A stretch of 64,000 nucleotides of DNA from a virus: the IMG/VR virus record IMGVR_UViG_3300032322_001107, positions 1-64,000 of that record; one strand, 5' to 3'. This document shows, piece after piece, positions 39,756 to 49,025 of the stretch. The position numbers and the translations under genes were made by a program. Position 1 is the stretch's first letter. Each line of letters opens with the position of its first letter. The notes beneath the pieces are model-generated. The model was not told the DNA's origin and made no database searches. It saw only the letters and a list, made by a program, of their open reading frames with translations.

Positions 39756-40205
39756 TCAAGAGAAAATAACGCGAACCTCAGCTTCGTCAAACATCTGGAG
39801 AGCGGCTTTGAAGGAGTCGGCCCAACGCTCGTAGCTATCAAGATGGGCGTTGAATGGGCAATACACATCTTTAATTCCAGACTGAATAATAGACGCCGCA
39901 CAATGGGCACATGGCTGGAATGGCCAGACAAAGAGAGAGTAGCCTTTAAGTGGTTCTTTAGCAGACAAGATGGCGTTCATCTCGGCGTGGATTGTGTAGA
40001 GAAGTTTGATGTCCCGATTTACAATCCGCTCATGGCAATCCTCTACTCCTCTAGGAAATCCATTGAATCCCACAGATGCTATGGTTCGGTCTGGTCGGAC
40101 GATGACCGCGCCCACTCTGCTGCTGGAATCTTTGCTCCATGTGGAGACTTCTTCAGCTAACTTGATAAACCGCGCAACCCACTTGTCTTCAATTGTTTTC
40201 ATCAA
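39756..40205 (-). CDS. dCMP deaminase
   Basis: HAEMNA and PCAHC zinc-deaminase motifs, plus SKD...VGAVIV...GFNGFPRG. Confidence 0.92.
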   Translation of the reverse strand: MMKTIEDKWVARFIKLAEEVSTWSKDSSSRVGAVIVRPDRTIASVGFNGFPRGVEDCHERIVNRDIKLLYTIHAEMNAILSAKEPLKGYSLFVWPFQPCAHCAASIIQSGIKDVYCPFNAHLDSYERWADSFKAALQMFDEAEVRVIFS

Positions 40206-40452: not shown

Positions 40453-41023
40453 AGTATGGATCTGTTAATTTGGCTGGGGGGAACAGCGCAGTCTTTAGGG
40501 GGATGATTTTTTCGGGCATCAGGCTCCAGATGCGGGTGGTTTCGTAGCTCTTCTTGCACCACTTGCGATTGTTGAACATCCAGTGATAGCCCAAGATGTA
40601 GGCGTTAGCCATCTGGGCATAGCGTTTAAGATCTACGGGTAGTTTATTGCGGGCAAGCTTCCGCACAGACCTTTTCTCGCAATCCCACTCCAGTTCAACA
40701 ACGAGTCGGATATACTTATCCACATATTCTACTTTTTTGCCAGCAAGCCATTCATCCAACTTTCCAAGGGCGTCCTCCCTGACATCGTGCCACTTGGGTC
40801 TTTGGAGTTGCTGGTCTAGGTGACAGGTCTCATGGACAAAGACATCAAGCCATGTAGATAGCGGGCGTTTGGTGGCTATGCGTAACTCTTTGTCATCCGC
40901 CCACCCTACAGAGGTGGCTTTGCCCGTGATGAGGTATTTCTGGGGAACAAACGAAAGTTTGAACTGGCGGTATTTAAGGATGGCCCGCCCTAGAAAGTTG
41001 ATTGTCGCCTGATCCATCGTCAC
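40445..41023 (-). CDS. Putative zincin metallopeptidase
   Basis: VFVHETCH (HExxH) with a downstream ELEWDCE motif. Confidence 0.6.
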   Translation of the reverse strand: MTMDQATINFLGRAILKYRQFKLSFVPQKYLITGKATSVGWADDKELRIATKRPLSTWLDVFVHETCHLDQQLQRPKWHDVREDALGKLDEWLAGKKVEYVDKYIRLVVELEWDCEKRSVRKLARNKLPVDLKRYAQMANAYILGYHWMFNNRKWCKKSYETTRIWSLMPEKIIPLKTALFPPAKLTDPYYD

Positions 41024-41208
41024 TCTTCTTCGACATCGGTTTCATCAATTTGTTCAAATAGCTTTCTGATAGGATTGTCGCAAAAGCCTTCTTCTTGTTC
41101 TGGAAATGGCATCAGAACCCCCGTGTCATCGTAGGCGACTTTTAGATCAGCATCGAATTGGCTCTGGTTCATTTGCCCTATACTACTGGCTTCTGTCCCA
41201 AACTTCAA
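41020..41208 (-). CDS. Acidic hypothetical protein
   Basis: Small ORF; start uncertain. Confidence 0.4.
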   Translation of the reverse strand: MKFGTEASSIGQMNQSQFDADLKVAYDDTGVLMPFPEQEEGFCDNPIRKLFEQIDETDVEEE

Positions 41209-41575
41209 TTATGGTTTTCTCTTCTTCGCCTTTTTTCGCTTTCCTTTGCGTGACTTTGAGTTCGATCTGGTCTTCTGTATCGTCAGGGATTGCCCCGCAG
41301 TAGCGTAAAAAATCGCAATAAAATTTCGCACCACCATAGAGATTGTCGGTGTCGAGGAGTCGATTTTTTCGGACGCTTTCAATGCAGACAAGCAGGCGGC
41401 TTGGATCTCCTTCTTTTCCCTCAACCTCTGAAAGTGGTTCATCGAAAAGAGGCGGTTGAGTGACGGCAGGCGGTGCCTTACGTTTAGTCTTAGCACTAGC
41501 CTTTTGTTTGATGATGTCTCTTCGTTCATAGACTCCTTTACTTACTTCCACATAGCCCGCTGGTAGTTCCTTCAT
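41183..41575 (-). CDS. rusA: RusA-like Holliday junction resolvase (catalytic part)
   Basis: RLLDTDNLYGGAKFYCDFLRYCGAIPDD matches the RusA DxDN...K...D...DD motif. Confidence 0.75.
   Translation of the reverse strand: MKELPAGYVEVSKGVYERRDIIKQKASAKTKRKAPPAVTQPPLFDEPLSEVEGKEGDPSRLLVCIESVRKNRLLDTDNLYGGAKFYCDFLRYCGAIPDDTEDQIELKVTQRKAKKGEEEKTIIEVWDRSQ
41209..41529 (-). CDS. Overlapping alternative-frame ORF with a RusA-like N-terminal motif
   Basis: LVLRLNVRHRLPSLNRLFSMNHFQRLREKKEIQ, with AAGGAG just upstream of its ATG. Confidence 0.5.
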   Translation of the reverse strand: MNEETSSNKRLVLRLNVRHRLPSLNRLFSMNHFQRLREKKEIQAACLSALKASEKIDSSTPTISMVVRNFIAIFYATAGQSLTIQKTRSNSKSRKGKRKKAKKRKP

Positions 41576-41751
41576 TGCTCAAGCAATACTTCCTCTTTAA
41601 GCTTTTCGGCTTCGGGGTCGGGGGCGATGCACATCATCAGTGCTTGGCGGGCTTTTTCCAGTTGTCTTTCTTTTAGTTCCAGTAACGCCTCCATAGTCAT
41701 CATTGGAGCCTCTTGTTTGAGATAGGCTGGATAAATTCGTCCCACTGTCAT
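41572..41751 (-). CDS. Small coiled-coil protein (59 aa, absent from ORF track)
   Basis: MTVGRIYPAYLKQE...LLEQ, with ATGA overlaps at both ends. Confidence 0.55.
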   Translation of the reverse strand: MTVGRIYPAYLKQEAPMMTMEALLELKERQLEKARQALMMCIAPDPEAEKLKEEVLLEQ

Positions 41752-42111: not shown

Positions 42112-42642
42112 TTATCGGCGCTTCTTTTGGGCGCGGATATTCTTTCCAGCCAAGGCTTGCTGGTAAGCTTCTTCGGTAATGACTCGGCCTCGGAGCTTAA
42201 ATACCCAATTACGTTGGCGCGTAAAACTCCAACTTAGTCCCAAGGCTTTGAGGGTTGCCGCTGTCATTCCACCTTTAATTTTGAGGCTTTCAATAATCTT
42301 GGAGTCAATAACTCTGGTAGATGTAAGCTTGTCCCGCCTGTTTGGCTCCACGGGATCAACCATGGGTTCGGGCTTTGGTCTGGAAATCTTCCGTTGAAAC
42401 TTGCGGGACTCCTCGCGTTCCACAGCGTGGAAGTTCTTGTGGCACTTTTTACAGAGACAAATCAAGTCATCAAGGTGGTTTAGCTCATCTCCCTTATGCT
42501 CGTAAGTTCGATGGTGTGCCTGCAAATCTAGGGGGCTGTTACAGAGTTGACAGCGGAATCCTGCTCGCTTTTTGACGGCCCTACTCACCTCTCGCCAGTA
42601 AGGAGTTGTAAGGTAGGCTTGGTATTGAAATTTCGTTATCAT
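42112..42642 (-). CDS. HNH endonuclease
   Basis: CQLC...LQAHH...LICLCKKCH. Confidence 0.85.
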   Translation of the reverse strand: MITKFQYQAYLTTPYWREVSRAVKKRAGFRCQLCNSPLDLQAHHRTYEHKGDELNHLDDLICLCKKCHKNFHAVEREESRKFQRKISRPKPEPMVDPVEPNRRDKLTSTRVIDSKIIESLKIKGGMTAATLKALGLSWSFTRQRNWVFKLRGRVITEEAYQQALAGKNIRAQKKRR

Positions 42643-45147: not shown

Positions 45148-45726
45148 TTATGCGTATTTCCAAATTCTTCCCTTTGCCGTATTGCACCTTCCAGCAAGAA
45201 CATTAGATACGCCCTTTCCGTATTTTTTAATTGCAAAACTGGTTGATTCAAATTTTTCAATATTTCCATTTTCATCAATTCCAATTACTGGTTTCTTCGT
45301 TTTTTGATTTCTAGATTTTTCGATGAACAATCTTTTGACTTCTGCTGGATCTTTGGGGCGTGAATATCCATTCCGTCTAAAATATTCATTACAAGCATGG
45401 CAAATTCCCCTTCTTGATTGTCCGCGACACGGAGCGCCACAATTTTTACAATGAGTATTAACTGGTCTCAATTTTGTTTCGCTTTGTTGCTTTGGAGTTG
45501 CCCAGCGGCAATTTTTCTTTTCGTAGTTTCCGTTTGGGTCAATTCTGTCCAAAGATGTTCCAAATGGTCTTGGCCCCATATCCTTGTCAAAATTTTTAAA
45601 AATCCTCCATCGATCACAAACCTTAATGCCTCTTGCGCCATACCATTTCCAAGATTCTCTTTTTGGGTTTGTGCAGCGTTGTATCATTGCTGCCCAACAT
45701 GAATATGAAGATATTGTTTTAATCAT
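45148..45726 (-). mobile_element. Free-standing HNH-type homing endonuclease with NUMOD-like C-terminus
   Basis: WAAMIQRC...YGARGIKVCDRW...LDRIDPNGNYE...NCRWAT. AT-rich, with its own promoter TTGATT-17-TATTGT. Confidence 0.8.
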
Positions 45727-45764
45727 GTTGCCACAATACATCCTATTATGGCAGAAATCAAGAA

Positions 45765-46115
45765 CTATTTAATATTGTCTTCGTTTTCCTCTCCAAAAGT
45801 TATTTTATGAGAATCTATTATCCATCCACTTCTTCTAGCTTCTTTTGCATTTTTATGAATTTCGTTATGACACAATCGACAAAGCGCGGCAAAAAGACTG
45901 TAGTCACAAAGATAGCGACCAACCCTGCCCGCCTTATGATGGATATCTTGACTCTTCGCCTTCTTACATTTCTCGCATATGGGATGCAGTGCCAAGTAGG
46001 CTTTTTTTACCTTTGTATACTCATTGTATTCACGCTGGCGTTTGGGGGATGCGCTCCGCAACCTTCCGCTGCGCTTAAGTGGGGTTTTTGAACGAAGTGG
46101 AGTTTTTCTTGTCAT
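45765..46115 (-). CDS. Small HNH endonuclease
   Basis: CEKC...DIHHKAGR...LCRLCHNEIH. Confidence 0.8.
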   Translation of the reverse strand: MTRKTPLRSKTPLKRSGRLRSASPKRQREYNEYTKVKKAYLALHPICEKCKKAKSQDIHHKAGRVGRYLCDYSLFAALCRLCHNEIHKNAKEARRSGWIIDSHKITFGEENEDNIK

Positions 46116-46122
46116 ACCTACT

Positions 46123-46311
46123 ATGATCACTTGGAACGATTACAATAATACAAAGCCCGATGCAGAGGGAATCTACCTCATCAAAAACGATGAGTCAAAC
46201 CCTCCATTAAAGTGGGCCTGCCACTATCACCCCCACCATGGATGGAGCGGGATTGGACATATCCTTGAACGTGTGATTAAGTATTGGAGTCCATGGCCCG
46301 ATTCAAAGTAG
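46123..46311 (+). CDS. Small hypothetical protein (DUF551-like)
   Basis: W...KPDAEGIYL...IKYWSPWP. Confidence 0.55.
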   Translation: MITWNDYNNTKPDAEGIYLIKNDESNPPLKWACHYHPHHGWSGIGHILERVIKYWSPWPDSK

Positions 46312-47720: not shown

Positions 47721-49025
47721 ATGCAAGAAGTCATCTTTGAACCATCCGCCGAAACCGCCATCCTTTCCTGCCTCTGTCATGCCCCGTCAGAGGATCAGCG
47801 CGAGATCCTTTTATCTATAAAGGAAGATCATTTCTACCTTCAGGAGAACAAGATCATCTTTCGGGCGGTCATGCGCTGTATCGCCAAGGGGATGCAGGCT
47901 GACATCATCAATGTTAAAGGAGAGATCGAAGCTGCCAACGAATACGATATCGTTGGGGGTGAACAAAAGATTACAGAAGTTGCAACTTCATGTGTAGCCC
48001 ATAACAACTGGAAGCGTTACTATCCCAAGCTGGAGGAAGCCCGCTACAGAAGGTCTCTGGAATACTTAGCCAATGACATGGTTCACAAAGCCAGAGATCG
48101 CGAGCTAAAGATTGAAGAACTCAAGAACTGGTCAGAGACCACCGTCATGCGGGCTGACTACGAGATGGATGATGGTAGTAAGCTTTCCATCAACAACGCC
48201 TTGGATCGCGCTGCCCAGAACATCGAATCCACGATTGCTGGAAAACCCTGTATCGGCATTCGCACTGGCATCACTCCATTGGATGACCTTCTCATGTTTG
48301 GCTTGCGCGGCGGGGACATGGTTGTATTGGCCGCAAGACCAGCGGTTGGTAAGACGGCAAGCGCCCTTCAGATTGCAGAAAACGTGGCACTTAACCAAAA
48401 GAAGCGGGTCTTGATCTTCTCTTTGGAGATGACCAGCGTTGCCCTCATGGAGCGCATGATCCGCTCGCGGGCGAGGGTGGGTGCTGCTGATATCCTTTCT
48501 GGTCGGGTGACTCCGCATCAGAAACAGTCTCTCGGACGGGCCGTGCAGGAAATCCAAGCATCCGAAATCATCTGCGATGACAGTTCGGCCAAATCCATTG
48601 GCTATCTCAAGGCGGTAGCTCGCCGCGCCCACCAGCGCACTCCGCTAGACCTCATCATCATTGACTACCTCCAGTTGGTTAAGGGCGATAGTAAGCGCGG
48701 AAAAGACAATCGCGTGTGCGAGGTGGAAGAGATTAGCGGTGGCATCAAGGATCTAGCCAAGACCCTTAAGGTTCCAGTTTTAGTGCTGGCCCAACTCAAC
48801 CGCGACCCAGACAAGCGCGGAGGACGCCCAAGCCTTTCAGACCTTAAAGGATCTGGAGCCATCGAACAGGACTCAGATATCGTCATTTTAATTCACAACG
48901 AAGAGGCGCAGGATCATACACAGATGCCGAATATAGAATTTATTGTAGCGAAACATCGTGACGGTGGAACAGGAGTTGCTAATATGGCATTTAACAAAGC
49001 AATAACTAGATTTGAATTGCCGTGA
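47721..49025 (+). CDS. dnaB: Replicative DNA helicase
   Basis: AARPAVGKT (Walker A), FSLEM, IIDYLQL, LAQLNR and GAIEQDSD. Confidence 0.97.
   Translation: MQEVIFEPSAETAILSCLCHAPSEDQREILLSIKEDHFYLQENKIIFRAVMRCIAKGMQADIINVKGEIEAANEYDIVGGEQKITEVATSCVAHNNWKRYYPKLEEARYRRSLEYLANDMVHKARDRELKIEELKNWSETTVMRADYEMDDGSKLSINNALDRAAQNIESTIAGKPCIGIRTGITPLDDLLMFGLRGGDMVVLAARPAVGKTASALQIAENVALNQKKRVLIFSLEMTSVALMERMIRSRARVGAADILSGRVTPHQKQSLGRAVQEIQASEIICDDSSAKSIGYLKAVARRAHQRTPLDLIIIDYLQLVKGDSKRGKDNRVCEVEEISGGIKDLAKTLKVPVLVLAQLNRDPDKRGGRPSLSDLKGSGAIEQDSDIVILIHNEEAQDHTQMPNIEFIVAKHRDGGTGVANMAFNKAITRFELP

Follow-up and report, generated by a model that had tools for sequence, protein, structure and literature searches.

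The Rz/Rz1 spanin of phage lambda is encoded by two genes, one nested in the other in the +1 frame, whose products bind to each other as one functional unit, and programmed -1 frameshifts are used in dnaX, for tau and gamma, and in the phage tail chaperone pair G/GT. The enzyme closest to the locus described here is the Holliday-junction resolvase RusA of Escherichia coli, for which D70, D72, D91, K76 and R69 have been named, S13, R35 and N73 placed at the DNA backbone and a flexible loop described at residues 15-28 (PMC1636454). The locus was studied in a stretch of viral DNA of 64,000 nucleotides (nt), positions 1 to 64,000 of the IMG/VR record IMGVR_UViG_3300032322_001107, which is referred to as the window. 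On its minus strand two overlapping open reading frames (ORFs), frame A (41575..41183) and frame B (41529..41209), appear to share the parts of a single RusA domain. The locus is probably a RusA-type Holliday-junction resolvase of which the one catalytic domain is split over two polypeptides, encoded by nested genes, that reassemble. On balance we also favour the wider reading that a widespread phage family of the RusA type is an obligate two-chain enzyme, in which about 30 nt code for the end of helix alpha1 and for strand beta2 at once. In that case overprinting would have divided one small catalytic domain, and the division would have persisted through deep divergence. The window is part of a complete virus record of 72,849 nt with terminal repeats and holds a single copy of the locus.

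Two overlapping frames under purifying selection

The features of the locus, in which "shadow" stands for the out-of-frame reading of the other frame, are as follows.

41575..41183, minus strand: frame A ORF of 130 residues, with an N-peptide, a spacer and a RusA-like C-terminal half
41513..41575, minus strand: frame A codons 1-21, the conserved N-peptide (MKELPAGYVEVSKGVYER..), selected in frame A
41399..41512, minus strand: frame A codons 22-59, the spacer, of which the amino acids are unselected in frame A while the frame stays open
41186..41398, minus strand: frame A codons 60-130, with beta2, D75-T-D77-N78, alpha2 (K84, D88, R91), D98-D99, beta3 and beta4
ATG at 41529, stop at 41211..41209, minus strand: frame B ORF of 106 residues, in the +1 frame of A
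41371..41529, minus strand: frame B residues 1-53, the selected part, with beta1 (about 11-17), P22-S23-L24-N25 and a helix at about F33-S53
41212..41370, minus strand: frame B tail, residues 54-106, a shadow of frame A with a K/R-rich end and unselected amino acids
41371..41403, minus strand: dual-constraint stretch of about 10 codons, B Q43-S53 (helix end) and A R60-R69 (beta2)
AAGGAG at 41538..41533, a 3-nt spacer and ATG at 41529..41527, minus strand: start of frame B, inside frame A codons K13-E17
41751..41572, minus strand: upstream ORF of 59 residues, of which the TGA overlaps the frame A ATG as ATGA

Frame A reads MKELPAGYVEVSKGVYERRD, followed by a K/P/A-rich stretch and then by SRLLVCIESVRKNRLLDTDNLYGGAKFYCDFLRYCGAIPDD and onwards, and the region of its catalytic motifs is RLLVCIESVRKNRLLDTDN...K84...D88...D98D99. 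Frame B reads MNEETSSNKRLVLRLNVRHRLPSLNRLFSMNHFQRLREKKEIQAACLSALKAS, followed by the tail with its K/R-rich end, and its N-terminal half (N-half) displays the motifs LVLRLNV..LPSLN..MNHFQRLREKKEIQAACLSAL. An earlier reading of the window, made from the sequence only, had described frame B (41209-41529) as having its own ATG with AAGGAG and a sequence matching the beta1-PSxN-helix N-terminus of RusA-family proteins; both ORFs, the ATG, the AAGGAG and the PSLN motif were indeed found, on the minus strand.

The layout was found to recur widely. Sixty-five viral contig loci were fetched with a pattern for the C-terminal half (C-half) of frame A, a choice that is blind to frame B, and their frame A identity to the window goes down to about 35%. 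The +1 frame is open over 91-121 codons in all 65 loci, and the +2 frame contains 5-17 stops. Another 37 viral loci, 26 of them unique, were fetched with two distant B-type proteins; in each of these 26 the -1 frame relative to B encodes the C-half of frame A (..R.h.V.h.S.R.RLLDEDNL.EK.h.D..RY.G...D..). Bacterial genome assemblies displayed the same two-frame layout in six loci out of six (five by pattern and one by eye). No locus was found when genome contigs were searched with the single window protein, and a narrower alignment of the other clade led to these six. In total the layout was seen in 108 loci (65 and 37 viral, 6 bacterial) from many independent assemblies. The possibility raised by the sequence-only reading that frame B is interrupted by stops in homologues did not materialize: both frames are open there (65/65, 26/26 and 6/6).

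The bacterial loci, L104-L109, are presumably prophages and hint at hosts. They belong to two cultured isolates of Verrucomicrobium sp. (BvORR034 and BvORR106), to two metagenome-assembled genomes (MAGs) of Verrucomicrobia, and to one MAG each of Candidatus Taylorbacteria and Caballeronia.

How far such openness follows from the encoded proteins was estimated by redrawing synonymous codons for related, non-independent sequences: all 36 non-redundant loci lack a frame A stop along the B module (mean redraw chance of staying open 0.67 each), and 34 of the 36 have a frame B tail that runs for 45 codons without a stop (mean redraw chance 0.31 each). Earlier frame B stops are present in L008 and L060, in the latter at codon 91 with frame A open. 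The openness of both frames exceeds what the protein sequences force.

Which frame is under selection was read from the variability of codon positions in 24 gene sequences that are less than 90% identical pairwise. The most variable position is the wobble position of A in A codons 1-21, that of B in about 22-63, and again that of A from about 64 to the end, and this A-B-A switch recurs in a second clade (15 and 22 non-redundant sequences). The +1 translations of frame B are conserved exactly where frame A varies: P22, S23, L24, N25, L27, F28, M30, H32, W/F33, R35, K39, K40 and Q43 are kept in B over variable A residues.

Around the junction of the second switch both frames are constrained. The sequence-only reading had noted that the frame B helix and the frame A strand use the same nucleotides, and this was borne out, B Q43-S53 (41403..41371) and A R60-R69 (41398..41369) together covering 41403..41369. 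A-R60 is invariant in 24 of 24 sequences; over it, codon 44 of B stands for A, D, N, I, G or T but always ends in C, the base that the Arg codon of A-R60 needs. Likewise, codon 47 of B specifies several residues (L, I, T, M, A, E) with only A or G at its wobble position, giving V or I in frame A, and A-R69 is invariant (24/24) above a variable B codon. Frame B in turn keeps Q43, A45, F/C46, S48, A49 and L50 over variable A residues within the shared stretch, B-S48 being encoded by several TCN codons (wobble entropy 1.18) with R, C, S, L or V as the overlapping A residue. Among these 24 non-redundant sequences, dual constraint extends over about 10 codons (41403..41371). Selection of this kind indicates that both frames are translated across these codons, so that no single simple frameshift can yield both the full helix and the full strand, in line with the earlier argument that one frameshift cannot leave both intact. 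Purifying selection acts on both frames in the segments given above, the arrangement holds throughout the family, and the locus thereby has the two marks of overlapping genes, both frames being open and both under purifying selection in divergent homologues.

The frame B family is broad. Its consensus is ..PFLxxRVPxVTPSLNALFAMNHWQRxxxKKKIQxAFxSAL.., with N25, M30, R35, K39, Q43 and L50 invariant and S23 nearly so. A profile of the frame B N-half gave 232 matches at E <= 0.001, including 75 at E <= 1e-10, among 1.84 billion representative proteins (clusters at 50% identity). Sequences were inspected for 149 of the 232, and the N-half motif is present in 139 of these 149, the other 10 being off-pattern and alike by eye. 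An in-frame D-x-D-[NG] within 70 residues occurs in none of the 139 motif-matched proteins. All 149 are B-type, consisting of the N-half and a typical shadow tail, and a stand-alone gene or an in-frame C-half was not seen among them.

A start codon for frame B is also conserved. In 78 of 80 unique loci frame B has an ATG that follows its last upstream stop and precedes N25 by 11 codons or more, the two exceptions being L062, at a contig end, and L080, with its ATG at -10. In the clade of the window this ATG is built from the A codons TAT-G, and 46 of 54 rows have TAT there; the remaining 8 have GAT or AAT, the script having chosen a different ATG in them. Tyr is encoded family-wide by TAT 154 times and by TAC 75 times.

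A distant clade (L066-L102, L057, L058 and L063) has a different conserved N-peptide in frame A, ..[RK][RL]FPNAS..F[LI]..N.., of which the form ..FPNAS..F[LI]..N.. was matched by pattern in 18 of 40 blocks. This peptide often holds the frame B ATG (AAT-G).

Relation of the two predicted products to the RusA fold

Of 102 candidate homologues of frame A, 97 proteins pass E <= 0.01, with 31-100% identity. All are unnamed or "hypothetical" and have no Pfam domain recorded. Residues 1-20 and those from R60 onward are conserved in their alignment and residues of about 22-59 are variable, and the N-peptide is still conserved at about 40% identity. R18, R60, R69, D75, K84, D88, R91, D99 and Q110 are invariant. 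The catalytic motifs DTDN...K...D...DD of the sequence-only reading stood up to this comparison as D75-x-D77-N78, K84, D88 and D98-D99: D75, K84, D88 and D99 are invariant, N78 is nearly invariant and D77 is present in the window. Motif spacing and the ranges aligned by VIA-align suggest that these residues are equivalent to those of E. coli RusA, so that frame A would contain the acidic residues and the lysine of RusA catalysis.

Residues 63-128 of frame A match two RusA-like PHROG families, PHROG 34 (E 7.6e-5) and PHROG 1682 (E 1.3e-4). A search of Pfam at E <= 10, in which RusA is PF05866, gave no match for frame A and no RusA match for frame B. PDB chains searched by sequence with both frames and their profiles gave nothing meaningful, and tblastn with frame A found no match in 50,697 GenBank phage records. 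For the frame B family, no Pfam RusA match was obtained with 30 members and no PHROG match with nine distant B-type proteins, and a feature search of the ESM Atlas with frame B 1-56 gave no usable match.

The model of frame A has a mean confidence (pLDDT) of 74.5; residues 8-18 form a hairpin and 19-26 a helix, and confidence is low at 27-60, where the spacer has a pLDDT of 51-57. The description of the frame A N-terminus as unstructured-looking consequently holds for residues of about 22-59 and fails for the first 20, which are conserved and are modelled as a hairpin and a short helix. Its C-half is modelled as strand 61-69, helix 76-92, strand 104-112 and strand 120-126. The best VIA-align match among 48,161 representative chains is RusA chain 1q8r_A (Z 4.7, root mean square deviation 2.8, 64 residues aligned), with 59-129 of the model on the C-terminal half of RusA, 53-118, a match that is tied with generic beta-alpha-beta-beta and 4-OT-type folds. 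The model of frame A covers only beta2-alpha2-beta3-beta4 of the RusA fold.

Relatives with the ordinary arrangement exist as well. A canonical single-frame family of 25 proteins was assembled as relatives of P0070; one of them is a "hypothetical protein" of a Planctomycetes MAG, and none of the 25 has a Pfam RusA match, nor do P0070 and its kin. These relatives share with the window a homologous C-half and the order of elements, and by Foldseek they have a RusA fold. Unlike the window, they encode all elements in a single frame, and alpha1 is connected to beta2 by a loop. The AlphaFold model of P0253 (pLDDT 89.6) consists of strand 6-12, helix 26-47, strand 56-64, helix 70-88, strand 98-106 and strand 113-120, and in Foldseek it matches E. 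coli RusA 1q8r_B (E 2.9e-5, TM score 0.63/0.69) and also 2h8e and 2h8c. Profile comparison by hhalign of frame A with the canonical family, P0070 left out, gave a probability of 94% and E 1.3e-7 over 83 columns that include beta2 and D-x-D-N. The same family offers a register for frame B: hhalign of the frame B N-half with the canonical N-halves falls in the expected alignment of beta1, S..N, HW and K..Q, without reaching significance.

P0070 itself, found on a contig of 692 nt, is among the frame A matches and hits PHROG 34 over residues 64-163 (E 1.3e-6). It has an ordinary in-frame N-half and a C-half that is 70% identical to that of the window. The N-half of P0247 is 89% identical to that of P0070, but the C-half of P0247 is canonical. 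To judge by these sequences, P0070 was probably joined at LLDTDNL, either by recombination between the single-frame and two-frame families or as a chimera of the assembly; it was removed from both alignments for that reason. An earlier hhalign comparison of frame A with the canonical family, in which P0070 was present in both alignments, was set aside. The frame B N-half was aligned with P0070 by hhalign over 7 columns, with a probability of 4%.

The lengths of the two products add up. In P0253 the distance from the asparagine of S..N, N21, to the first catalytic Asp, D69, is 48 residues, with an alpha1 of 22 residues. The same span in the window measures 104 nt, or 34.7 codons. When B N25-S53 (29 residues, with a full-length helix) and A P59-D75 (17 residues, with a full strand) are counted together, about 46 residues are obtained by plain sequence arithmetic. 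Against the 48 of the single chain, this indicates that the two chains together hold everything that the single chain has.

A complex model was made of A(56-130) and B(1-53), as the sequence-only reading had suggested for A and B, and it joins the two into one RusA-like domain. The interface score ipSAE is 0.80 (0.79, 0.80 and 0.81), compared to 0.02 for the highest-scoring of three controls; the runs share at least 92% of contacts, and the pLDDT of the partners is at least 84. The mark set for the tool was reached by 58 of 80 solved complexes and by 2 of 110 mismatched pairs, which makes it a rough guide here, as own alignments were used. In the model, frame A is contacted by B residues 8-25 and by one face of 38-50. 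Strand B 11-17 runs antiparallel to A 120-126, the B loop contacts A 61-69 (B 21 with A 67), and the face of the B helix formed by 38, 39, 42, 43, 46, 47, 49 and 50 lies on A 77-95 (B 46 with A 89). In this model the missing strand and helix of frame A are added in the places expected for RusA. The model suggests that the pieces look like two halves of the RusA fold; it does not imply binding itself.

Proposed two-chain enzyme and rival explanations

In the mechanism proposed, polypeptide A would be translated from the start at 41575, the sequence of the ATGA overlap with the upstream 59-residue ORF suggesting translational coupling into frame A. It would begin with a conserved N-peptide of 20 residues, followed by a spacer some 38 residues long, which is the out-of-frame shadow of B, and by the C-terminal half of the fold, of which beta2-alpha2-beta3-beta4 would hold all acidic and basic active-site residues (D75, D77, N78, K84 and D99). 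Polypeptide B would be made in the +1 frame from its own ATG at 41529, with beta1, the PSLN loop, helix alpha1 and a basic tail that is the shadow of A. The strand of B would insert between beta2 and beta4 of A and its helix would pack on alpha2, which would rebuild the four-stranded sheet and the two helices of RusA. B would bring in a central strand, a loop with a Ser and a helix with a conserved Arg, and these two residues may correspond to S13 and R35 of RusA. By analogy with RusA, the A-B unit would dimerise and cut junctions. We infer that both proteins are made, assemble and are active as a resolvase.

The earlier suggestion of nested genes for complementary halves of one enzyme is supported by the openness of both frames, by selection, by the frame B ATG in 78 of 80 loci, by the sum of lengths and by the complex model. 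Several points weigh against it. Frame A alone gives a fairly confident beta-alpha-beta-beta model (pLDDT 80-89 for 61-130), and this model has no PDB match in Foldseek at E <= 0.001. Frame B has no RusA-family match in Pfam or PHROG, and hhalign of its N-half with the canonical N-halves gave E 0.076 and 0.15, with a probability below 1%. The score of the complex may stem from the memory that the modelling tool has of solved RusA structures. Only 3 nt separate the Shine-Dalgarno-like AAGGAG from the frame B ATG, and ribosomes that translate A pass over this start. The conserved N-peptide of frame A and its tether are not accounted for by the proposed mechanism, which also puts forward no evolutionary route to the overlap.

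A rival possibility is that polypeptide A alone is the enzyme, its N-peptide hairpin replacing beta1, and that B is a separate regulator or DNA-binding factor. All catalytic residues are indeed in A, A can be modelled by itself with the hairpin 8-18 and a folded C-half, the tail of B is K/R-rich, and B lacks a significant RusA profile match. We nevertheless consider this explanation unlikely. The strand and helix of B take the position of the RusA N-half in the complex model, with an ipSAE of 0.80 against 0.02, the order and spacing of the B motifs fit a canonical N-half, and B is never found apart from A among the 149 matches that were inspected. Moreover, S13 and R35 of the RusA N-half are at the DNA backbone according to PMC1636454, and B keeps S23 and R35, which presumably map to them.

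It is a little less probable again that ribosomes translating B undergo a programmed -1 frameshift at the A-rich K39-K40 and thus enter frame A, so that the functional product would be one RusA-like chain in which alpha1 is shortened. The sequence-only reading had offered a frameshift near GGGAAAAGAAGG as its second option. Slippery heptamers were scanned in frame B from the HW motif to the helix end in the 80 unique loci. A_AAA_AAG is located exactly at K39-K40 in 29 of these and A_AAA_AAA in one more, but no -1 heptamer was found in 46 of the 80, including the window, which reads GAA AAG AAG at K39-K40 and not X_XXY_YYZ. Compared with shuffled sequences, the 80 nt past the site show no stronger folding in the window (z -0.18) or in L021 (z -0.07); in L011 a z score of -1.98 was obtained, 7 of 200 shuffles folding as well. 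A conserved heptamer with a downstream stimulator, as expected of programmed -1 frameshifting, is therefore not what these loci display. Frame B is still under selection for about 10 codons past the site (Q43, A45, F46, S48, A49, L50), which counts against a fusion because a fusion would leave those codons unused. A frameshift also leaves unexplained the conserved ATGA-coupled start of A, its N-peptide and its open spacer. For the window the frameshift suggestion is accordingly not upheld.

The loci with A_AAA_AAG (L011, L012, L014-L026 and relatives) belong to a clade about 40% identical to the window, in which the heptamer just precedes the dual-selected stretch. In this clade the heptamer might let some ribosomes shift into frame A, giving a fused chain with a short helix.

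Very improbable is a single polypeptide made by two recodings, with ribosomes shifting by +1 once the N-peptide is made and by -1 once the helix is made, which would join N-peptide, beta1, alpha1 and C-half. The selected frame does run A-B-A, and four single-frame relatives (P0248, P0249, P0252 and P0255) have an N-terminal extension and the whole domain in one frame. On the other hand, neither junction has a conserved shift site, and such a product would skip A R60-V68, where R60 is invariant and the V/I pattern is kept through the wobble position of B. The B ATG (78/80), the open A spacer and the open B tail would all be needless. An artefact or decay, that is an assembly indel or a frameshifted pseudogene with a resemblance of B to RusA by chance, is scarcely credible: neither frame has a Pfam RusA match, but the layout recurs in 108 loci (65 + 37 viral and 6 bacterial) with A identity down to about 35%, which excludes an assembly indel, both frames bear the signature of purifying selection and the window lies in a complete record with terminal repeats.

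Some further observations concern the surroundings and parts of the locus. The beta3-beta4 loop of frame A is E/K-rich (QRKAKKGEEEKT, codons of about 109-121, 41213-41250) and is absent from the canonical relatives. Its +1 reading is the K/R-rich C-terminus of frame B (41212-41260), whatever synonymous codons are used, and the loop may be kept in A partly for the basic tail of B. Some canonical single-frame relatives have an N-terminal extension (..LLA.NP..) that is loosely similar to the N-peptide of the distant clade. In the ORF list of the window, a TTG ORF of 62 residues (41020-41208, minus strand) is frame B continuing past its own stop; a likelier start of the downstream gene is an ATG about 10 nt past the frame A stop (MNQSQFDADL..). 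By eye, Cys/His patterns resembling those of HNH-type endonucleases were seen in the minus-strand ORFs 42112-42642, 45148-45741 and 45765-46130 near the resolvase, and a putative DnaB-like helicase ORF (47721-49025, plus strand) and a putative deoxycytidine monophosphate (dCMP) deaminase-like ORF (39756-40205, minus strand) were noted as well.

Meaning and comparison with known systems

If the two products assemble, the locus encodes a natural split enzyme with its halves in overlapping frames, and part of the DNA is selected for two structural elements of one fold. Such a locus would be a system in which to study the limits that dual coding sets to protein evolution, and a stoichiometry set by nested translation starts. 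It also explains the annotation "hypothetical", since gene callers keep one frame and lose the other: 97 entries of the frame A type, with no Pfam domain recorded, were found, and 232 of the frame B type, in a library that carries no annotation. Half-domain proteins of phages may more generally have a partner hidden in another frame. The presence of the locus in cultured Verrucomicrobium isolates makes the family experimentally accessible.

A two-frame or split RusA was not found in the literature, as judged by titles and the beginnings of abstracts, and a two-frame split RusA has apparently not been described before. Resolvases of this class, gene overlaps in phages and split proteins are all known individually; what is new is the combination, in which one small catalytic domain is divided over two overlapping frames, together with a shared stretch that is selected in both frames and kept across a large family.

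The closest known system is E. coli RusA (PDB 1q8r, 2h8c and 2h8e), which, with PHROG 34, resembles the C-half of frame A. The D-x-D-N...K...D...DD of frame A recalls the set D70, D72, N73, K76 and D91, named in PMC1636454, and the fold that the model rebuilds from A and B likewise consists of a sheet of four strands and, on one face of it, two helices. The differences lie in the arrangement. RusA is a homodimer of a single polypeptide, whereas N-half and C-half are here in different overlapping frames, with beta1 and alpha1 in the +1 frame only. The connection between beta1 and alpha1 is short here, compared to the flexible loop 15-28 of RusA, and the C-half chain has an extra conserved N-peptide and a spacer. 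In contrast to the RusA family, the locus gives no Pfam RusA match.

With the frameshifted genes dnaX and G/GT the family shares the A_AAA_AAG heptamer, as found in 29 of the 80 loci. It differs from them in that neither the window nor most clades contain the heptamer, and in that the data call for two separate full-length frames and not for a shift. The phage lambda pair Rz/Rz1 resembles the locus in its nesting, but Rz and Rz1 are different proteins with different folds, while the two frames studied here would each encode one half of a small enzyme domain and share about 10 codons under dual selection.

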